Shown piece by piece: positions 1-63,850 of a DNA stretch of 64,000 bases; positions within the stretch are counted from its first letter, which is position 1; each line of letters opens with the position of its first letter. Made by a program: the position numbers and the translations under genes. The stretch lies in the NCBI GenBank assembly GCA_021324685.1, contig JAJPIQ010000085.1, forward strand, positions 5,713 through 69,712. Reading direction: 5' to 3'. The notes below the pieces were generated by a model that saw nothing but the letters and a program-made list of their open reading frames with translations, did no database searches and had not been told where the DNA came from. This stretch comes from Bacteroidota bacterium. Lineage in GTDB: Bacteria > Bacteroidota > Ignavibacteria > Palsa-1295.

Positions 1-385
1 GCGCCGAAAAAATAAACAAGAATAAATTCGTGCGACTGTGCTGAATGATATCCTCGCGAATGAAGAAAAGGACGGCAATGAGAATGAGCGCATTGATGAG
101 CAGTGCGCGCGAAAGTTGCGCAAATTGCATTACGCCCGTGGAGTAGACCTTGAATTTATAGAGCAGGTGTTGACGAAAAATCAGAATCAGCAACGGGAAC
201 GAAGCGTAGAGCGTCGCAATCCGAAGGACGTATTCACCGAGGGAGTGTTCGACGTCGTAGGTATCGCCAGTGAAATAATGCAGGACGAGCGCCGCGATCG
301 CGGCAAGCGTGATCGCGACCCAGTCCAGAAGGACCAGCGTCACCTTTGGCCAACCATGGCGCCGGATCGTCGATGCAAAAATCAC
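1..385 (-). CDS. N-terminal membrane part of a polyprenyl-phosphate sugar transferase (WcaJ/WbaP type), runs off the window
   Basis: Manual translation from GTG at 385 (GTGA overlap with the aminotransferase stop): MIFASTIRRHGWPKVTLVLLDWVAITLAAIAALVLHYF...; four hydrophobic segments; open to the window edge; polysaccharide-cluster context. Confidence 0.6.
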   Translation of the reverse strand, partial: MIFASTIRRHGWPKVTLVLLDWVAITLAAIAALVLHYFTGDTYDVEHSLGEYVLRIATLYASFPLLILIFRQHLLYKFKVYSTGVMQFAQLSRALLINALILIAVLFFIREDIIQHSRTNLFLFIFSA

Positions 386-54844: not shown

Positions 54845-55265
54845 CCGCCCCTTCCACAACGCATGATAGCACGTGGTCGGAACGTTTAGCCCTTCTGAAG
54901 CCGGAGCCTCAGACAGAGTACCGTATCAATGTTCTACTGAAAGTTATGTTTTGCTACTGATTGTAAGATTCATCGAAATGTAATCTCGATGACGTTTCCA
55001 ACATAAAGACCAACGAATTGCGAAAAGGTTACAATGGCCAGAAGGTCATTTTTTCGTGACCTGCTGGTTTGGGCACGTTGGCGGCCCTGTCACTTAGTAG
55101 CAAAAATCAGATAGGCGGTTCGAATGGGTTGACTTTAAGCATAGCAAATATACGAACGATTCGCGAACATCCCTCAAAAATGAAAAATGAACGCCTCTTT
55201 CCCCTAATCAATCTGATTTTGGCATTTCAAGTCTAATTTTGGCATTTTTGTATTATATTGCAAGC

Positions 55266-57326
55266 ATGAATATGAACCTTCGTCCTTTCCTCGTGACTTC
55301 CCTGTTATTCCTGGTCCCTGCGGTGACATGCCTGGCTCAGCCGGACACGATCCCACGAGAGCTTGAAGTAACGCCATTCTGGATGACTCAAAATCTGAGT
55401 GCTGTTTTTCGAAGTCCGGATACGGTCCTCGCATGCCAGCAGAATTCTGGCTGGCTGGCCGTCTCTTCCGACATGGGTCGAAGCTTCGATTTCCGCGATA
55501 CGGCGTCACCGTCCGGCGGTCACGTGATTTTAACGAAGTCCGGACCCCTCTGGCGGAGTTCGGCTCAAAGAACCGTTCAATGGAGCCGTGACCTGGGCGT
55601 TTCATGGACCTCCGTGAACGAACAACAGAGCGGAATTTTAGGAGCGACGAGCGATGGGCGTCGGTTTTGGTGCGGCAGTTCCGATGGAAAAAAAATAGTT
55701 ACTACCGGAGATTTTGGTTTGACATGGGATACGCTTCCTTTTTCCGCATCTGTGTTGATGTCCTGGCTGGACGTTTTGCATGGAGCGGTCCTTATTGGCG
55801 ATCAGGCGTTACTGTTAACAACGGACGGTGGATTGTCCTGGGACACGTTGGTCAATGCAGCCAGTTCTCAGAAAGGAATCCTACATGAGGCCGCGGCGAT
55901 CGCGTATGTGAAAATTGGAACGTTAGCAACAGAGAGTACCACCGGCCGCATCAATTTAAGTACGGATACCGGTCACACCTGGAAAAGCGAAGTTGGGACA
56001 CCCTATTGGAATATTATCCCTCTGCGCGACAGCATGTGGTATGCGACTGCTACATCGGGCGGAGGCATCGTGCGCTCAACCGATGGCGGTCACACGTGGA
56101 ATGATATCCATTATACTTGTCCCAACGGCCCGGGTCCCTTGGCTTTTTGGGACTCGACGCATGGCACGACACTTCAAACGGCCGAAACAACGGATGGAGG
56201 ACTGTCGTGGGACTGCCTCGATACCACGATCTACGTCAACCAACCGTTCTATCCGAGCGGGTACGATGCCTCGACCTATTATGGAGAAGCGACTCGATCG
56301 GGAGCGACCTGGCTTTGCGTTACAACCGATCGCGGCGACCATTGGTCGGAACTGTTCCCAATGGCCTCCTCCACGTTTATCCCGTCGGGCCATCGCCTCT
56401 TCTTCGGTTTCCCCGATAAGGTCACGTGGACCGATGACGTTGGACAAACGTTCTCAGAATTCGATTACGGGTATTACGGGAATAGCCTCCAGCTTCTCAA
56501 TGCCCCGGACGGAGAAATTTGGGCCGGTAATGAACTCAAACTGTTTACATCGAACGATAATGGCAACACCTGGACGGACCGCTCCTCGGCGCTTCCGTAC
56601 CGCATCGATTCGCCGCAACTCTATTATACATTCCTTCCAGTCGATGGTCGATCCGGCTTTGTAAAGGTCTCGAACGGCAATATTTTTCGCACCATGGATA
56701 CCGGATTGACGTGGCTGCGTGACTCGATCTTTCCGACCACGGTGATCGATTCAAGGCACTGGATCTCCGGTACAAAAATAACGATGAATGCCGGAGACAC
56801 ATGGATCGCTCTGCCAGCCCCGTCGAAAGGGACCGGGAATTTCCTTGCGATCGATTCTGAGCGATGGATCGACAAGGGAAACTATACGACCGATGCGGGT
56901 ACCACCTGGACTCCTATCGCCGGTTGGAATGCAGAACCGACGGTCCACTTTACAGCGATCGATTCTTTGACTGCATTTGGAGGCCTTCTCTGGAGACTCG
57001 ATATGCCATGGTACCAAAAAGAGATAAAAAACAGTGTAACTCGAGCCCCGAACGAGTCGTCGCAAATCAGTATGGTCTCGGTCAATCCGAATCCTGTCCG
57101 GCAGGAAGCAAATATTTCTTTCGATCTCTCACAAGCTGCATTCACGACCATTGAAATCTTCGATGTTCTCGGTCATTCCGTCAGCCAGGCGAATCTAAAG
57201 TCCGAGATGGCCGCTGGGCATCATATGGTTTCTCTTCCGATCGGAATGGTCGGCGCAGGGACGTACTATGTACGTTTGGGAACGGCCGATGGATCTCTTC
57301 AAACATTGAAAATAGTAAAAGAATAG
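55266..57326 (+). CDS. BNR/Asp-box repeat beta-propeller protein with T9SS C-terminal domain
   Basis: Many (S/T)xDxGxxW repeats; signal peptide; VNPNP...IFDVLG...GTYYVRL; start at ATG 55266. Confidence 0.9.
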   Translation: MNMNLRPFLVTSLLFLVPAVTCLAQPDTIPRELEVTPFWMTQNLSAVFRSPDTVLACQQNSGWLAVSSDMGRSFDFRDTASPSGGHVILTKSGPLWRSSAQRTVQWSRDLGVSWTSVNEQQSGILGATSDGRRFWCGSSDGKKIVTTGDFGLTWDTLPFSASVLMSWLDVLHGAVLIGDQALLLTTDGGLSWDTLVNAASSQKGILHEAAAIAYVKIGTLATESTTGRINLSTDTGHTWKSEVGTPYWNIIPLRDSMWYATATSGGGIVRSTDGGHTWNDIHYTCPNGPGPLAFWDSTHGTTLQTAETTDGGLSWDCLDTTIYVNQPFYPSGYDASTYYGEATRSGATWLCVTTDRGDHWSELFPMASSTFIPSGHRLFFGFPDKVTWTDDVGQTFSEFDYGYYGNSLQLLNAPDGEIWAGNELKLFTSNDNGNTWTDRSSALPYRIDSPQLYYTFLPVDGRSGFVKVSNGNIFRTMDTGLTWLRDSIFPTTVIDSRHWISGTKITMNAGDTWIALPAPSKGTGNFLAIDSERWIDKGNYTTDAGTTWTPIAGWNAEPTVHFTAIDSLTAFGGLLWRLDMPWYQKEIKNSVTRAPNESSQISMVSVNPNPVRQEANISFDLSQAAFTTIEIFDVLGHSVSQANLKSEMAAGHHMVSLPIGMVGAGTYYVRLGTADGSLQTLKIVKE

Positions 57327-57344
57327 ATAAAGAAAAGTCTAATA

Positions 57345-57385
57345 TAAAAGCCCGGCATCGATCCTAAATGATCAATGCCAGGCTT
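57345..57385. terminator. Likely bidirectional terminator
   Basis: AAGCCCGGCATCGATC / GATCAATGCCAGGCTT imperfect stem between convergent genes, with an A-tract on the left. Confidence 0.65.
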
Positions 57386-57402
57386 GCTCTTAAAGTAAAG
57401 AT

Positions 57403-59373
57403 TTAACGATTCCCGATCGTATCGTCATCTAACGGACGACGAGGACGCCGAGGCATTTCGTTGCCCTCGTATCCGCTCGTACGTGGCTGCGGATTATAAC
57501 CTCCTGGCCGCGACGGACGAACGTTGGTCGAATAAACAACTTGTCCTCGCTGTTGCCGTATACCGCCGCCCTGCTGAGGTCCTCCCGGTCCCGGGGGCTG
57601 AGGACGATACCCGCCCTGCTGAGGGCGAGGCCGTTGCTGCGGCCGTCCCTGTCCATAAGGTCGGTTCTGTGGTTGTTGACCGTAACCACCGCCCTGCTGA
57701 CCATATCCACGGCCTTGTCCCTGTCCGCCACCCCACTGGCGTCCCTGGTTCGGGCGTTGCGGGCGTCCCTGGCCTTGCTGCTGTCCATAGGATCGGCCCT
57801 GCTGTTGTTGGCCATAAGGTCTGCCTTGCTGAGGTTGCCCGTATGGTCTCGCCGGGCGTTGACCGCCATACGGCCGGCCCTGTCCCTGGCCTCCGCCATA
57901 CGGTCGGCCCTGTCCCTGACCGCCACCATATTGTCGGCCTTGTCCCTGACCTCCACCAAATGGGCGGCCTTGTCCCGGTCCGCCGCCGAATTGTCTACCG
58001 GAAGGCTGGCCATAGGGTCTTCCCGGACCTTGCTGCCGTGGGCGACCTTTGGGTTGCTGCTGCCAGCCACCGCGTTGAGGACCACGTTCGGGACGCTTTG
58101 CACCCGTGCGAGGACCTTTTCCGAACTGTTTCTTCGGTCTTTTGTCTGCGGCAACGAAGACTCGTTTGCCTTTTTCAGCGTCATACTTTTTCTGGGCGTG
58201 TTTGCGCTGCGGCTTTTGTGTTTTCCTTGGGGCGCGAGCAGGCGGAACGACTGCTTTCCATTCTTCCTCTGCAAGCTGGGATTGCGCTCGGACCGGTTCT
58301 GCAATAAACTTGAAGGTATCCAGGCCCATGATCCGGTCGGCGATCTCTTTTCCGCTCCAGAACGCCGAAGCGATCGAACTCTGACCCGCTACATAATCGC
58401 CGGCCAGATATAACGGCGCCTTAAATTCGCCTTCTTTAATCGTATCGACCGAGAACGGCGACGAAGAGAGAAATGCGGCCGGCCACCTCTGGATCTCTCC
58501 ATAAGTGATATCCGGCAGAGCTACATCGAGTACCTCTTCGAAGACTCGCTCGACGGCGATGAAGGTCTCTTTATCCGATTTGAGCACATAGTCGCGGCTG
58601 ATTTCGGCTCCCAATTGAAGCACAAATGCCATCTCATTCTTCCGAATGCCCAGCGGCCTGCGAAGGCTTTCCTGTGACAGCCAGAAGATCGGCGCCGTGA
58701 CATCGTCCGTAAAGAGTGCAGAAAAGGGTTCTGGAAAATCTATCTTCGACGTGCCGAACATCGCACCGATCATCGGCTCGTAGTTGACATCATTAAAGAG
58801 GTCGCAAATCCGCTTAATTTTTTTGTTCGAAGCGGCGTGCGGTAAGAGCAGCGCCAGCGCATATGGTGCCGGCAACGCGATAACGACCCCTTCCGAAGGC
58901 GTTGTCTCCCCTCGCTGATTGCGAAGTTGATAACCATTGCTTTCAATGACGATATCGCTGATGCGTGTATGGGTGCGAACTGGAATATCCCTGGCGAGAG
59001 CGTCGGCAAACGCCTTCATGCCGCCATCGATATAGGACCAGTTGGGTACTTCGACCTGGTGAGCGTTGCGGATAGACCGGCCATCGAAGCGGAAAACAGG
59101 CGCCGGAAACGCTACCGCATGGGCGAGCACTCCACGCTCTTCTGCAACGGCCTTGAGGAGCGTACGAGCTTCTGTTTCAAGATTATTGGCAGAAAGCGGG
59201 GTAAGATCGATGCGCTGAGCGCCGGAATCCATCGTCCGATACCCGACATTTCGTGTAGAAGCTCGGCCCCCGAGGCCTCGCGACCATTCTAAGAGTGTAA
59301 CGTCTTTTCCAGCACGATGGAGAAAATAGGCTGCGGACAGGCCGGAGAAGCCTCCGCCGATGATCGTAATCAT
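57403..59373 (-). CDS. Renalase-like FAD-dependent oxidoreductase with long G/Q/R/P/Y low-complexity tail
   Basis: IIGGGFSGL, SRGLGGRASTR, DSGAQ, GGM, LAGD; tail from about residue 380. Confidence 0.87.
   Translation of the reverse strand: MITIIGGGFSGLSAAYFLHRAGKDVTLLEWSRGLGGRASTRNVGYRTMDSGAQRIDLTPLSANNLETEARTLLKAVAEERGVLAHAVAFPAPVFRFDGRSIRNAHQVEVPNWSYIDGGMKAFADALARDIPVRTHTRISDIVIESNGYQLRNQRGETTPSEGVVIALPAPYALALLLPHAASNKKIKRICDLFNDVNYEPMIGAMFGTSKIDFPEPFSALFTDDVTAPIFWLSQESLRRPLGIRKNEMAFVLQLGAEISRDYVLKSDKETFIAVERVFEEVLDVALPDITYGEIQRWPAAFLSSSPFSVDTIKEGEFKAPLYLAGDYVAGQSSIASAFWSGKEIADRIMGLDTFKFIAEPVRAQSQLAEEEWKAVVPPARAPRKTQKPQRKHAQKKYDAEKGKRVFVAADKRPKKQFGKGPRTGAKRPERGPQRGGWQQQPKGRPRQQGPGRPYGQPSGRQFGGGPGQGRPFGGGQGQGRQYGGGQGQGRPYGGGQGQGRPYGGQRPARPYGQPQQGRPYGQQQQGRSYGQQQGQGRPQRPNQGRQWGGGQGQGRGYGQQGGGYGQQPQNRPYGQGRPQQRPRPQQGGYRPQPPGPGGPQQGGGIRQQRGQVVYSTNVRPSRPGGYNPQPRTSGYEGNEMPRRPRRPLDDDTIGNR
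57871..57990 (-). repeat. Four degenerate 30-bp coding tandem repeats
   Basis: Units begin at 57871, 57901, 57931, 57961 and encode (F/Y)GGG(Q/P)GQGR(P/Q). Confidence 0.85.
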
Positions 59374-59611
59374 GGTGTGATTTGCTTTATGTGAGCTTTT
59401 TTATCACCGGTTTCGCAAGAGAATAGGTTTAGCGCCCGGTGAAATCCGTTATTTAAGTATGAATTGCAAACTTCCGGCATTGCGGCAAAGTGGACTAAAA
59501 ATGCGCCGCATTTCCGGTGCTGCGGAGAAATTCGAACGTATTCTATTGTATGGAGCTTACCCTTCTAAAGTTCGGAGAATCTTCAAAAGGTCAGTTTTTT
59601 CGTGAAACGTA

Positions 59612-59762
59612 GTCGTGAGAGTTGCCCGCCGCCGCGCGCAAGAGGCCATCGTAGCCCGCTCTTGACATTTTTGACGATCCGGCTTTCGCTGCGAGGTTTA
59701 AGTAAGAATGAAAGCGAACCTGAAGCCCGACCGTTTTGAACTCACGGCAGTCCGGCGTGAGT
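59612..59762. ncRNA. Candidate structured RNA in divergent intergenic region
   Basis: GTCGTGAG/CTCACGGC closing stem, CAAGAG/CTCTTG hairpin, GGCTT/AAGCC and AGGTT/AACCT nested stems. Confidence 0.4.
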
Positions 59763-59869
59763 AGATTTGAAAATCCCGAATACTTAAAAGGAGTTCCACT
59801 TATTAAGTTAAATTTCTTTCCAGGAGCACCGGATTCATGGATTTGCTCTTCTGACAGGAAATTACAAGA

Positions 59870-61435
59870 ATGTTTGGTCAAAATTTTCGTTACCGCGGTG
59901 TGAGGTTCTCATCGTTTAATCGCGGCGAAAAATATTGCCTGACCGCGCTATCCATACTCACGTTTTTGCTTCGCGTTCCTTTGGCGTTACGGCCAACGGC
60001 AATGCTGACCGCCCTTCCCTATGGTGACGACGCATATTATCTATTTTCCATTGCGAGACATTTATCATCAGGCCATGGCATTTCGGTCGATGGCATTCAT
60101 CTGACAAACGGCTTTCAACCTCTCATCCTTCTATTTTATACTCCGATTTTTTGGCTGTTTGGTTCCAATGCATGGCTTGCCGTGCGGTGGACATTTGTCA
60201 TGAATGCGGCTATATCTGCATTGACGATTTGGACAGGAGCTTTTACGGTTCGAGCATTGGAACGCCAAACGCAACGAAGCACCGTGTCGGCACCGGTGAT
60301 CTTCGCTGCTTTGAGCGGTCTCGGTTATGAATTCTTCGCCCAGATGACGAATGGTCTTGAAACGGGACTTCTTACACTCCTGCTACTGATATCAATTTAT
60401 TATTACAACAAGATTGCTTTTGAAGAAAAAAACGAGAATGCTCCTCGATCAGAATATATCGCCCTTGGCGTAGTTCTGGGACTCACGGTGCTCGCACGGA
60501 TCGATGCAGCGATTCTTGTTGCGATCATCGTCTTGTCGCTTTTCCTCAGGCGCAAGATCGTTCCAGCGATCATTACCGGAAGCGTGACCTTCCTCATTAC
60601 CCTGCCGTGGTGGCTCTATAATGTCATTTACTTCGGGAATGTAATGCCCTCCAGCGGACAGGCAGAAAATAGCTGGCCCGTACCGCCAGGAATTTCTTTA
60701 CAAAGTGCCGTGAAGTCGCTCTCTGAAATAATCACATTGATATTTTATCTTCCGGGCTCTTTTGGACCTGTTATTCGAACTCTCTGGATTCTTGCCTTGC
60801 TTTCGGCAATCGTTTATGCCTTCACTCGAACACGGTTAAAGAATGTGCTGCGTACGATGCGGTTCAATGTTCTCCTGCCCTTCATCCTTTTTTCTCTTAT
60901 TCTTCTGGTCTACTATACGTTCTTTTTTGGGGCGCCGCATTTTATTTCACGGTATATGCAGCCGATGCGGATATTATGGGCGATCATAGTATCGTTCGCG
61001 GCATCCTGGCTTTGGGATCAGCGGGGGAAATTCGCTCGAGTGCTATTGACTCTGGGGGTAGTTTTGGGAATCACATTTACTATTTATCAATATGCCTTTC
61101 TGTATTTTCCGTCGATCGGGACCTGTGAGCTGTATCATGCTGGCCTCTGGGCAAAAGACCATCCAAGGGAGAAAATAGCGATGCTGCAATCCGGAATTGC
61201 GAGCTTTATTGCGCCGAACATTAGCAATCTTGACGGGAAGGTTAATTCGGATGCCCTCAAAGCACATCTCGATGGGCACCTTGGCGAATATCTTCAACAA
61301 GAGAAGTTCTCCTATATTGCCGATTCGAAATCGTTTATTTCCGACATTAACAGGCTGGCCCAAAAAGATCATGTTTACTTCGATTCCTGCATGATGATCG
61401 GCTCTATTGAAGTCATGAAACGTCGAGATGATTGA
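59870..61435 (+). CDS. GT-C fold membrane glycosyltransferase (ArnT/PMT-like)
   Basis: DDAYYLF loop after TM1, TNGFQPL, GLET, LARID; many TM helices. Confidence 0.8.
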   Translation: MFGQNFRYRGVRFSSFNRGEKYCLTALSILTFLLRVPLALRPTAMLTALPYGDDAYYLFSIARHLSSGHGISVDGIHLTNGFQPLILLFYTPIFWLFGSNAWLAVRWTFVMNAAISALTIWTGAFTVRALERQTQRSTVSAPVIFAALSGLGYEFFAQMTNGLETGLLTLLLLISIYYYNKIAFEEKNENAPRSEYIALGVVLGLTVLARIDAAILVAIIVLSLFLRRKIVPAIITGSVTFLITLPWWLYNVIYFGNVMPSSGQAENSWPVPPGISLQSAVKSLSEIITLIFYLPGSFGPVIRTLWILALLSAIVYAFTRTRLKNVLRTMRFNVLLPFILFSLILLVYYTFFFGAPHFISRYMQPMRILWAIIVSFAASWLWDQRGKFARVLLTLGVVLGITFTIYQYAFLYFPSIGTCELYHAGLWAKDHPREKIAMLQSGIASFIAPNISNLDGKVNSDALKAHLDGHLGEYLQQEKFSYIADSKSFISDINRLAQKDHVYFDSCMMIGSIEVMKRRDD

Positions 61436-61491: not shown

Positions 61492-62271
61492 ATGATACTC
61501 ATAATCCCATCGATTCCGATCGTCCATGGCGTTTGTGGCGGCCAGATCGCTTCGCTTGCCCATGAAGTCCATCATGCCGATGGTGAGATTTATTCTCACG
61601 ATCCGATCGATCGCGCGCGATTACTCCGGAAAGAAAATGCAAAGATGCTCCATCTCGAGTTTCTGGATCGCGATGCGTGGGATGACTCCTGCCTGCGGCT
61701 TATCCATAACATCCGCGAAGCGGTCGATATACCGATCGGAGTTTCCGTGGCGGAGGTACCGGCGAGCGAAAACCAATGCAGACAATTGTTCGATGCTGGT
61801 ATTTATCGCATTTTTCTTCCGCTTGGAACTCCGGAAGCAATGTTTTTGCAGTATTGCAAACAATTCACTTCAAGGAAAATCATTCCTAAGGTCGATCTGA
61901 CGTACGAATTTGAAACGAAGCTGCCGCTGTATCGGAGCATGGGTGTCGAACGGATCGGTATCGATATTTCCAAAAGTGACCGGCTCGAAAGTGGAACGAT
62001 CGAGTGGGCACGACTTCAAAGAGCTGCAAAAATTGCTGGCGAACTGGGAATCCGGATTACTGCCTTACATGGCGTTCGCGGATATCCGGAACTTCGGGAG
62101 TTACAGGACTTACATGTCGCACTCGACTCTCTCATACTCTGTCGGGCCTTGAACGAAAATCGGTTTCCATGCCAACTTATCTGGCGCGAAATGGAAGCAA
62201 CTTCTGCGCTCGAATCGACGCCTGCAAGTAATCTTTGGAGCAACCCGTTAGCAGGAAAACCTCACATTTAA
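61492..62271 (+). CDS. HisA/HisF-related TIM-barrel protein, apparently catalytically degenerate
   Basis: MILIIPSI, YSHDP, ENAKMLH, IREAVDIPI, RALNENRFPCQ; lacks PAID and GGG motifs. Confidence 0.75.
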   Translation: MILIIPSIPIVHGVCGGQIASLAHEVHHADGEIYSHDPIDRARLLRKENAKMLHLEFLDRDAWDDSCLRLIHNIREAVDIPIGVSVAEVPASENQCRQLFDAGIYRIFLPLGTPEAMFLQYCKQFTSRKIIPKVDLTYEFETKLPLYRSMGVERIGIDISKSDRLESGTIEWARLQRAAKIAGELGIRITALHGVRGYPELRELQDLHVALDSLILCRALNENRFPCQLIWREMEATSALESTPASNLWSNPLAGKPHI

Positions 62272-62272
62272 T

Positions 62273-63850
62273 TTAACGCCGTTTAAAAAGATAAAAATGT
62301 CCGATCGTCGTCTCGAGCGAATAACGGCTTGTGAGGAACTGGAATAATTCCGTCCACTGAACGAGGGAATGATACGAATCGAGTGAACTGCCGGTAATAT
62401 ACGGCTTTGCGTCACCAAATTCCACTACGAAATAAGACGGACTCGAAACCTGAAGCTGAGAAAGAAGGCTTGCTTTCCAACGTACCGGAGTAAACGACGT
62501 TCGAAGCGGAGTCGCAGTCAGACATAGCGTGCCTGGATCCTTTCTCAAATAATAATAGATCCCAACGTCGTTCCCCCAGAGGAAGACATTCTCGTCCGAA
62601 ATTATCCTTTTGGAAAGATAACGAGCAACTTCAATCTGTTCCGTTGCAAAATAATCCGAAACCCGCAATTGCGCGCGTTCCACACGATCCTTCCTCAAGG
62701 CATGGAACGGCCAGTAAAACGTTTGTGTGAACAGTCGGGGCATAGGCGAAAAAATCGTGAGCAACAATATAAAAGCGAGCGCCATTACTGTTCTGCGATT
62801 TCCCTTTTGTCTCGTCATCGCCTCGCAGAACTTAAATATTCCAATTGCCATAAAGGGAGAGATCGCCCACAAAGCGCGCGTATACTGATATGGAAATTCA
62901 AATTTGCGTTCGAACAATATTCCCGCTAATTGTAAAATGAAAGTAAGAGCGAGTAATGAATAAAATACTTCGGTCTTTCCTTTATCAAGATTGTCCATTC
63001 TTCGGTAAAAATAATAGCCAAGCACCGCAAGAAGGAAAAGAGAAAGGGACATCGAATAGATCAATCGCTCGGGGAATATCACGAAGTAGTCTTCGAGCGC
63101 AGAACGATTCAGCGATGGAAGTGAACTATAATGTAAAAGCCATTCAAGCCATTCACGATATGGAGTAATTGCATCTGCCTGCCAAAGAATATACAGCCCG
63201 ACGAATCCTATAATAAACGCTGATAAAAAAAAGCCAGTCAAAAAATAAAGTGTTGCCTTCTTATCCATTTTCCTCGTAGCGATAATAACGAGGATACTTG
63301 CAACTCCACCGAACACGAAGGTGATCTTGAGCAAAAAAAGAGTAGCCGTTGCGACGGCCGCTGTTATCCCCAGGATGAACGCTTTCGACGAATTTTCAAT
63401 CGCACGAAGCGTCACATCGAGTAAAAGGACCGAAGGGATCAGTGCAAAACTTTCGGCTTGAGCGGTCATCCAGAATCCGGAGCCGGCATACATGATCTCT
63501 GTCAGGGAGACAGCAACGATTGCGATTTGAACACTGCAATAACGCCGCAGTACTCGAAAGAAATAATAGCAGGCAAGGAGTTGATAAATGACATCGAAAG
63601 CATGAGGCGCCCACATATGGTGTCCGAACATTGCGCTTGCAGCCGCATAAAGATAAAAAATGAGCGGGGGTTTCGTATCCAGAAAATCGCGAATCGGAAG
63701 GGCGCCGTTGCGTACCATCTCACCGCCGACACTAAAAACGGCTTGATCGTAACCAAAGGGATAAAAAATCGTTGCCACCAACATCACAAAAGCGATGATG
63801 GCAACAATTTTCAGGAATGGGCGAGAAAAATCAGAAGTGCGCGCGTTCAA
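62273..63850 (-). CDS. GT-C fold membrane glycosyltransferase (family 39/ArnT-like)
   Basis: YDQAVF, RDFLDTKPPLIFY, AQAESF, LLK; many TM helices. Confidence 0.83.
   Translation of the reverse strand: MNARTSDFSRPFLKIVAIIAFVMLVATIFYPFGYDQAVFSVGGEMVRNGALPIRDFLDTKPPLIFYLYAAASAMFGHHMWAPHAFDVIYQLLACYYFFRVLRRYCSVQIAIVAVSLTEIMYAGSGFWMTAQAESFALIPSVLLLDVTLRAIENSSKAFILGITAAVATATLFLLKITFVFGGVASILVIIATRKMDKKATLYFLTGFFLSAFIIGFVGLYILWQADAITPYREWLEWLLHYSSLPSLNRSALEDYFVIFPERLIYSMSLSLFLLAVLGYYFYRRMDNLDKGKTEVFYSLLALTFILQLAGILFERKFEFPYQYTRALWAISPFMAIGIFKFCEAMTRQKGNRRTVMALAFILLLTIFSPMPRLFTQTFYWPFHALRKDRVERAQLRVSDYFATEQIEVARYLSKRIISDENVFLWGNDVGIYYYLRKDPGTLCLTATPLRTSFTPVRWKASLLSQLQVSSPSYFVVEFGDAKPYITGSSLDSYHSLVQWTELFQFLTSRYSLETTIGHFYLFKRR

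Follow-up and report, generated by a model that had tools for sequence, protein, structure and literature searches.

The DNA stretch analysed here (hereafter the window; 64,000 nucleotides) comes from contig JAJPIQ010000085.1 (positions 5,713 to 69,712) of the assembly GCA_021324685.1, a 3.47-Mb genome of 54% GC in 89 contigs from an uncultured soil bacterium of the Kapaibacteriaceae, Bacteroidota. As a single open reading frame (ORF) of 656 codons plus stop on the minus strand (57403..59373, stop codon 57403-57405), the window encodes a renalase-type flavoenzyme carrying a long Arg/Gly-rich C-terminal tail. The start codon is an ATG according to the ORF list and translation, and upstream of it only nine in-frame codons separate it from a stop (open frame 665 aa). 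The protein starts with the Rossmann strand MITIIGGGFSG, without a signal peptide, and the GC content is ~0.50-0.55 across the flavin part of the gene and 0.60-0.66 across the tail part. Directly 3' of the stop codon there is a terminator-like hairpin of 16 pairs, 8 of which are G-C (57348..57385, minus strand); the hairpin scan as a whole gave 4 sites with 3.3 expected from shuffles, and this hairpin counts by its position and length only. The promoter scan yielded one weak site (59569-59540) with 1.4 expected, which is no evidence of a promoter.

The protein comprises, from its N-terminus and with all coordinates on the minus strand, a renalase-type FAD (flavin adenine dinucleotide)-binding oxidoreductase domain (residues 1-351; 58321..59373), identified by Pfam, the match to PDB entry 4zcc, an AlphaFold2 (AF2) model, Foldseek and VIA; a clade-specific structured extension (residues 352-415; 58129..58320), recognized by invariant columns, by its insertion relative to tail-less relatives and by a predicted confidence (pLDDT) of 73-96; and a predicted disordered polycationic tail (residues 416-656; 57406..58128), delimited by pLDDT, by composition and by a grammar kept across homologs.

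The fusion was followed in 24 genomes of the same family and in 16 that belong to other families of the class. An ortholog is found at E <= 1e-100 in 19 of the 24 same-family genomes, 17 of which are read as open frames of 618-810 aa, while the ortholog of genome G013 is cut by a contig end; the five same-family genomes without an ortholog are 67-91% complete. None of the 16 genomes from other families has an ortholog, the best match (3.1e-7) being confined to residues 2-80 at Rossmann level, and no tail-less paralog occurs in the host genome. A word-indexed protein search retrieved 43 family proteins besides the query (P0002-P0044), mostly of 620-790 aa, where every complete one bears a G/R/Q/P/Y tail, and one protein (P0045) similar at Rossmann level only. 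When residues 1-380 were searched with HMMER against 1.84 billion representatives, the tailed clade reached to E 3e-120, with tailed proteins or fragments extending down to E 1.7e-29, and from E 2.6e-24 tail-less proteins of 320-380 aa with ~30% identity followed. The architecture is retained while the identity of the flavin domain drops to 44%. A sequencing run from a different study contains contig pieces of 99+% identity over the domain/linker junction (58157-58398) and within the repeats (57694-58048). The gene is thus a single-gene, lineage-specific enzyme of the Kapaibacteriaceae and a real, old fusion.

Renalase-type enzymes are small, soluble proteins which clear damaged NAD(P)H isomers. 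The accessible part of PMC7660482 describes the renalase-type oxidases as passing electrons from 1,2- and 1,6-NADH to FAD. Pfam identifies Amino_oxidase (9.1e-21) and NAD_binding_8 (2.1e-12) in the present enzyme, and no NCBIfam model passes its cut-off. With phmmer against all PDB sequences, the best match is the bacterial renalase 4zcc (E 7.3e-18; query residues 2-349 versus chain residues 5-324), and the second Pseudomonas renalase sequence, 3kkj, matches the same query residues (E 7.4e-15), while the remaining matches are restricted to the N-terminal Rossmann part (E >= 4e-06), with PPO as the next family. An AF2 model was built from an alignment (A2) of 126 sequences, consisting of 37 tailed proteins and 89 tail-less relatives, and its pLDDT is 90-98 per 10-residue block over residues 1-370, apart from one block of 87. 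Bacterial renalase chains rank first when this model is searched with Foldseek (E 3e-26 to 5e-24), and 4zcc (E 3e-26) reaches a template modelling (TM) score of 0.85, normalised to the target. The VIA alignment to 4zcc covers 321 of 328 residues (model range 1..351) with a Z of 34.9 and a root-mean-square deviation of 2.5, and human renalase 3qj4 follows with a Z of 31.8; the larger oxidases of the amine-oxidase superfamily (PPO, LAAO, MAO and LSD1) give Z values of 25-31 over partial-chain alignments only.

The FAD-binding motifs tested, namely GxGxxG, the acidic residue ending strand 2, GGR and the C-terminal G-D, are all intact, and none of their residues (G6, G7, G8, G11, E29, G35, G36, R37 and D326) varies among 23 family members. 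Eighteen columns, including W231, R296, W297 and D326, are common to the tailed and tail-less groups, and ~30 further positions, many of them basic, are invariant in the tailed clade only, H19, R20, K23, R46, R80, R99, H135, R154, K187, K265 and R276 being among them. P0051, a protein of 353 aa whose cluster name assigns it to a Longimonas metagenome-assembled genome (MAG), is the closest of the tail-less relatives and matches 4zcc at 1.4e-30. P0053, P0055 and one cluster member of P0052 are labelled as renalase by JGI/IMG. By sequence match and predicted fold, the flavin domain is a member of the renalase/COG3380 family.

The extension (residues 352-415; pLDDT 73-96) is predicted by AF2 to contain helices at 355-358 and 369-372 and strands at 395-398 and 403-406, the latter in a predicted beta-hairpin (residues 395-410; 58144-58191). 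Its invariant residues are D352, I357, P360, Q364, W372, P377 and P378, of which the last three lie in the segment WKAVVPP (58240-58260), and a Lys-rich patch is present as well. In over 70% of the 89 tail-less relatives positions 357-415 have no counterpart, so that this stretch is an insertion, and no listed solved chain aligns past residue 353 of the flavoenzyme in VIA.

From about residue 421 to the C-terminus the pLDDT falls below 50 despite the 126-sequence alignment. Residues 416-656 consist of 28% G, 21% Q, 15% P, 15% R and 6% Y with a net charge of +32; residues 381-656 contain 69 G, 54 Q, 39 R, 38 P and 15 Y with a net charge of +43, and the proximal residues 351-460 contain 15 Lys, 14 Arg and 14 Pro with a net charge of +20. 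In the sticker array (residues 454-589; 57607..58014), aromatic residues recur at intervals of about 10, usually in the form G-R-x-[YFW]-G (x represents any amino acid). The 14 aromatic residues within 441-600 are separated by gaps of 8, 10, 10, 10, 10, 9, 9, 9, 18, 10, 7, 9 and 16 (median 10), and none of 5000 shuffles of this region has as low a coefficient of variation in spacing. Twelve of these 14 stand in the context R-x-[YFW] and 13 are followed by a G; the motif R-x-[YFW]-G occurs 12 times. The array includes four tandem decapeptides GGG[PQ]GQGR[PQ][FY] (residues 463-502; 57868..57987), which Tandem Repeats Finder detects as a period of 30 nucleotides (4.2 copies, 84% matches, 57863-57987). 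Among five units of the form GGG[QP]GQGRx[YF], 37 synonymous and 15 non-synonymous codon differences are counted in 100 codon comparisons.

The tail, as modelled, has the features of an RG/RGG-type region, in that it is predicted to be disordered, is rich in Arg and Gly and carries aromatic stickers. The literal RGG triplet occurs once in residues 416-656, and the repeated unit is G-R-x-Y-G. A feature search of residues 420-656 in the ESM Atlas gave the RNA-helicase tails RDM3_C and DeaD_C as top named clusters, with scores of 0.76-0.80 that are below the level often reached by shuffled proteins. The structure matches there have TM scores below 0.25 and Pfam reports neither RDM3_C nor DeaD_C, and the resemblance is a lead only.

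The grammar of the tail was compared in 42 homologs, after two had been dropped for want of the WxAVVPP anchor; five of the 42 are truncated or frame-shifted. The net charge of the tail is +27 to +45 in all of them save P0017, a 22-residue stub (+6), and aromatic residues make up 7-10% with a median gap of 8-12, save in P0017 and the frame-shifted P0020. In P0020, a 625-aa homolog, the tail is rich in Ala and Val (19% and 15%, respectively) and looks like a frame-shifted reading of GC-rich repeats. Where a tail is read to its natural end, its length is 255-411 aa. The sequence itself drifts, from GQGRSYGQ-type units within the genus to GGGGGYRDRNQ-type units in distant members, where the sticker context shifts from R-x-Y to GG-Y and Gln falls to 7-10%, while Gly, Arg and Tyr stay. 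Because charge, aromatic content and spacing are held and most codon differences between the repeat units are synonymous, the tail grammar is taken to be under selection.

The islands which persist in this drifting sequence are the WxAVVPP segment, a beta-like V-Y-[SQ]-T motif and the C-terminal tip. The second appears as a [VT]YST[NGS] block in 14 of 23 aligned homologs, including VVYSTNVRP near the end of the present protein (residues 612-620; 57514..57540), and the remaining, more distant clade has V-x-V-[YF]-Q-T earlier in the tail (8 of 9 rows; absent in P0041). The protein ends in the motif PRRPRRP-L-DDDTIGNR (residues 641-656; 57406..57453), where a basic patch precedes an acidic/hydrophobic tip. 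The form of this motif in the genus is RRPRRP-x-[DE]D[DE]-x-[IV]GN[RQ], and in distant members DN-x-N-x-[GF]N[RQ] precedes an acidic extension of the PDEDE type. The tip [DE]D-x-x-GN[RQ] is found in 32 of the 42 homologs, and the ten without it are five truncated or frame-shifted proteins and five with variant ends. The end D-D-[DL]-[IL]-P-F of SSB was considered as a model for the tip and rejected, as the flavoenzyme does not have it and the likeness is one of layout only.

A sequence-only reading of this window, made without database searches, had proposed most of this architecture, and the renalase assignment, the regular spacing of aromatic residues, the diverged codons of the repeats, the retention of a similar tail by orthologs across the whole family and the persistence of the terminal GNR are all borne out above. 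Its boundaries need revision: the flavin domain does end near residue 350 as it stated, yet the basic linker placed after it is folded to about residue 415 (pLDDT 73-96 over residues 351-410), and of the G/Q/R/P tail, given there as ~270 aa, ~241 aa are predicted to be disordered. The description as RGG-like is apt for an Arg/Gly-rich region with aromatic residues, but not for the unit repeated. The label prion-like, which implies a Q/N-rich region of low charge, is rejected, given 2% Asn, 15% Arg, a net charge of +32 to +43 and the low Gln content of distant homologs.

The end motif was searched for on other proteins by an unbiased DNA scan with a back-translated [DE]DDNIGN[RS]-stop pattern. 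In 185,579 species genomes the pattern matches 6 stretches, which are 4 family members, 1 RluB-type pseudouridine synthase and 1 CsrA; the RluB-type match is a 494-aa PseudoU_synth_2 protein in a Nitrosomonadaceae MAG, whose long basic tail ends PPDFDDDNIGNR, while the extension of the CsrA ends DDDNIGNS. In metagenomes the same pattern gives 7 stretches, three of them from family members, three from CsrA (with two different sequences among them) and one from a junk ORF of 14 codons. The looser DDxIGN[RS]-stop is found in 3 of 301 Burkholderiales genomes (two RluB-type proteins and one doubtful 110-aa ORF; none in the reversed control), and the second of these RluB-type tails, whose sequence is unrelated apart from its end, closes with VDDDIGNR. 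Against all longer proteins, a profile built from C-termini of 42 residues recovers 15 family members, 4 PseudoU_synth_2 clusters and 41 CsrA clusters at E <= 10, and no family besides these; all 4 PseudoU_synth_2 clusters end DDD(N)IGNR, 28 of the 41 CsrA clusters end [DE][DEN]x[IVL]GNx, and the motif lies at most 4 residues from the end in 36 of the 41. Among short proteins (30-359 aa), 23 candidates for sharing residues 595-656 were considered, none of which matches at E <= 10. Judged from these sequences, the tip recurs sporadically on RNA-binding proteins in other phyla, and a common partner of the proteins bearing it is hypothesized. To our knowledge, no function of the DD-x-[IV]GN tip has been described.

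The CsrA carriers (L025, L027, L028 and L031; P0194-P0236) are proteins of 75-94 aa, one of which is named for Marinicella pacifica, and their acidic C-terminal extensions (median 28 aa, net charge -6) end DD-x-[IV]GN[QRSN]. The RluB-type carriers (L026, 6499-7983 on the minus strand; L037; P0192, P0193, P0208 and P0232) belong to some Burkholderiales and have 449-721 aa, with Gly/Pro/Arg-rich tails that end (V/F)DDD(N)IGNR and have a net charge of +10 to +17 in the last 220 residues. RluB orthologs of this order were collected at 30 loci, 8 of which had no ORF under the filter and were dropped; 21 of the 22 read have plain basic tails.

Composition scans of the host genome reveal other Arg/Gly-rich tails on polynucleotide phosphorylase (PNPase), a DEAD-box helicase and two RRM proteins, all four confirmed by Pfam, and the tail of the flavoenzyme is by far the longest among them. 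The PNPase (L068; C20:41584-43854) ends in an RGD/RGG-rich tail and the DEAD-box helicase (L069; C61:42208-43656) in an (RNDRSP)n-like tail, while both RRM proteins (L070, C64:14874-15248; L071, C87:44236-44595) have RGG tails finishing in GGKRW. A TPM-domain protein (L072) carries a GGF-rich Gly/Phe tail without Arg, which finishes in GGGW.

Next to the flavoenzyme gene lie a convergent gene (55239-57326, plus strand), which encodes a protein of 695 aa in which Pfam identifies Sortilin/Vps10-type repeats together with a Por_Secre_tail domain for sorting by the type IX secretion system, and a divergent gene for a multi-pass membrane protein with no Pfam match (59870-61435, plus strand). Only the latter remains next to the flavoenzyme gene elsewhere, namely at 7 of 19 related loci, and these 7 belong to the same genus. 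Beyond it, a weak His_biosynth-like ORF (61492-62271) stands between this gene and that of another multi-pass membrane protein (62273-63850, minus strand), in which Pfam identifies a PMT_2 glycosyltransferase domain.

The explanation favoured here, which is given about an even chance of being correct, is that a renalase-like oxidase is concentrated on RNA or ribonucleoprotein (RNP) by a polycationic Arg/Tyr sticker-spacer tail, and that the acidic tip has a docking or autoregulatory role. The protein is read as a cytoplasmic FAD oxidase of the renalase/COG3380 type, permanently fused to a predicted disordered tail of ~240 residues and a charge of ~+40, which is built as a sticker-spacer polymer with Arg-x-Tyr/Phe every ~10 residues, Gly/Gln/Pro spacers and the additional motifs VVYSTN and PRRPRRP-x-DDxIGNR. 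Such a tail may bind RNA or RNP (ribosomes, mRNA or degradosome-like assemblies) multivalently and with no fixed structure, and this binding would concentrate the flavoenzyme there, possibly in condensates, where the acidic tip might either attach to a partner or tune the binding by folding back onto the basic tail. The catalytic domain would then carry out renalase-like chemistry locally, presumably using its FAD to oxidize a reduced pyridine or a dihydro-nucleotide with O2. The sequence-only reading had already suggested that the enzyme is targeted to RNA or RNP, which is plausible on circumstantial grounds only, these being the Arg/Gly tails on RNA proteins and the end motif on RluB and CsrA.

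A bolder proposal, which must be regarded as a long shot, makes the renalase-like domain an RNA-directed flavin oxidase and DD-x-[IV]GN[RQ]-COOH a docking or autoregulatory motif shared across phyla by CsrA, RluB and the flavoenzyme. The enzyme might in that case oxidize RNA-linked reduced nucleotides, such as 2-/6-dihydro isomers of a 5'-NADH cap, or might convert dihydrouridine to uridine, and it would act as a repair or eraser enzyme for RNA within a ribonucleoprotein condensate of the bacterium. The action near NAD-capped RNA that had been suggested from the sequence is pure speculation.

Several observations weigh against the RNA-targeted oxidase. As regards the locus, the gene stands alone and is part of no operon, so that its neighbourhood is uninformative; Rfam gives no match at E <= 1 over 57200-60000, no RNA sequencing run is listed among those that contain the gene, and Pfam finds no recognizable RNA-binding domain in the flavoenzyme. 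In the single-contig relative G001 (G001:C1:853057-855052), the ortholog is read as four pieces and contains one TAA and two TGA stops, and the gene may be a pseudogene and dispensable there, or the breaks may be assembly errors in a repeat-rich gene. As regards the chemistry, the tailed clade has N42 and S333 at positions where Arg is found in 75% and 69% of the tail-less relatives, respectively, and because these residues replace Arg it is uncertain whether dihydro-NAD(P) is the substrate of the tailed enzyme. A tail of +40 would also bind DNA, polyphosphate and acidic membranes equally well.

The tip gives further reasons for caution. The end motif is on no other protein of the host genome, and the strict pattern matched in 400 further Bacteroidota genomes only 1 junk stretch with an internal stop, versus 2 matches in the reversed control; owing to this absence, the shared tip may be convergent, and by these scans it is not the mark of a hub shared within this lineage. 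In RluB the end motif is sporadic (2 of 301 Burkholderiales genomes by pattern), and the idea of the tip as a general RluB feature is rejected, as it occurs in 1 of the 22 orthologs read and that one is the starting sequence. The C-terminus profile held RluB and CsrA rows and is thus biased to them, with weak E-values (1e-3 to 10) for all its non-family matches.

If, instead, the tail were a flexible tether, VVYSTN and PRRPRRP-x-DDxIGNR would dock on one protein hub and RNA binding would be incidental. Short conserved islands in a drifting tail, with the end motif in 32 of 42 homologs, are what such docking would leave, and the same tip closes the acidic CsrA extensions (median 28 aa, net -6); since these are not polycationic, the tip may not depend on a basic tail for its action. 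This alternative is nevertheless unlikely, albeit credible, as a tether alone leaves unexplained why a charge of ~+40 and a regular aromatic spacing are kept, no partner has been identified and the tip is on no other host-genome protein; nor does the AF2 model, in which these parts have pLDDT below 50, dock the tip or other tail islands on the flavin domain of the protein itself. Binding to another polyanion, either by anchoring on the nucleoid through the histone-H1-like Lys/Pro/Arg stretch (residues 380-445) or on polyphosphate granules, is distinctly unlikely. The proximal tail resembles DNA-binding basic tails, residues 351-460 carry a net charge of +20 (15 Lys, 14 Arg and 14 Pro), and the electrostatics are the same for DNA, polyphosphate and RNA; however, RNA proteins account for all the further Arg/Gly tails found in the host genome and for the carriers of the end motif besides the flavoenzyme, and none of these is DNA-binding.

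It is very unlikely that the tail has no targeting role and serves as an entropic bristle, a solubility or crowding element or a tolerated low-complexity expansion. Its variable sequence and length (255-411 aa), its clade-specific repeat units and the broken appearance of the gene in G001 are in favour of this, but the architecture is kept at 44% identity of the flavin domain, the charge, the aromatic fraction and the spacing stay within narrow limits, there are conserved motifs, and the repeat units show more synonymous than non-synonymous differences. The GGGQGQGRPY repeats also recall elastomeric Gly/Tyr repeats, and a structural or extracellular protein can be imagined in which a resilin- or glutenin-like tail is cross-linked through dityrosine by H2O2 from its own flavin domain, the accessible part of PMC7660482 being again the source for electrons passing from 1,2-/1,6-NADH to FAD in renalase-type oxidases. 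The lack of a signal peptide and, according to Pfam, of Por_Secre_tail or any other sorting domain, together with a high Arg content and an acidic tip that are untypical of such proteins, makes this extremely improbable. The possibility of an artefact, that is, a chimera or a wrong frame through GC-rich repeats, is practically nil: the repeat region is open in several frames and P0020 ends Ala/Val-rich, yet the frame is continuous in 17 related genomes and ~40 database proteins, contigs of an independent study run over the junction and a hairpin follows the stop codon. Assembly chimerism, which the sequence-only reading had named as a possible refutation, is accordingly ruled out.

Among known systems, the catalytic part shares its compact two-domain FAD fold, at 25% identity over a full-length match, with the bacterial renalase of Pseudomonas (4zcc, 4zcd, 5krq and 3kkj), human renalase (3qj4) and COG3380. 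The known renalases and the 89 tail-less relatives are 320-380 aa long and end at the domain, whereas the flavoenzyme adds a 64-residue extension and a tail of ~240 residues, and even the nearest tail-less proteins have only ~30% identity to the tailed enzyme. The RGG regions of eukaryotic FUS/hnRNP proteins are Arg/Gly(/Tyr)-rich disordered tails of RNA proteins. The Arg/Gly tails of RNA proteins are like the present tail in disorder, Arg/Gly richness, spaced aromatic residues and high positive charge; the flavoenzyme differs from them in being a metabolic-type enzyme without an RNA-binding domain, and its tail is rich in Gln and Pro, is far longer and has an acidic tip.

A linker followed by a C-terminal peptide is also the layout of FtsZ. 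Bacterial SSB (OB fold, with a disordered Gly/Gln/Pro linker) and Hfq likewise consist of a folded domain, a low-complexity linker and an acidic/hydrophobic C-terminal peptide, and the accessible parts of two reports state that the SSB linker governs condensation and that the acidic tip of Hfq autoregulates RNA binding (PMC12143593, PMC5606850). The flavoenzyme differs from SSB in its tip, which is DDxIGNR where an SSB-like ORF of the host genome ends VDDLPF, in its strongly cationic linker and in having an enzyme as N-terminal domain. The RluB and CsrA carriers have the same extreme C-terminal motif on folded domains unrelated to the flavoenzyme and belong to other phyla; the long Gly/Pro/Arg-rich tails of RluB are like that of the flavoenzyme, while the short, acidic extensions of CsrA are unlike it. 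No description of the fusion or its tip motif, of the end motif of the CsrA extensions, or of a link between renalase and NAD-capped RNA was found in the literature searched, which was accessible in part and had subscription papers outside its coverage. Within that literature, the enzyme family is known and so is this type of tail, and their combination, its conservation and the shared tip appear undescribed.

In this family the only renalase-like enzyme is welded to a FUS-like Arg/Tyr tail of ~+40, which suggests that these cells require its chemistry at a specific site, with RNA as the most plausible one. The recurrence of the tip on CsrA and some RluB proteins offers a handle on a possible shared partner or autoregulatory device. 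The family would also be a natural test case for bacterial sticker-spacer tails, in which the sequence drifts, while the charge, the aromatic spacing and the short motifs stay.

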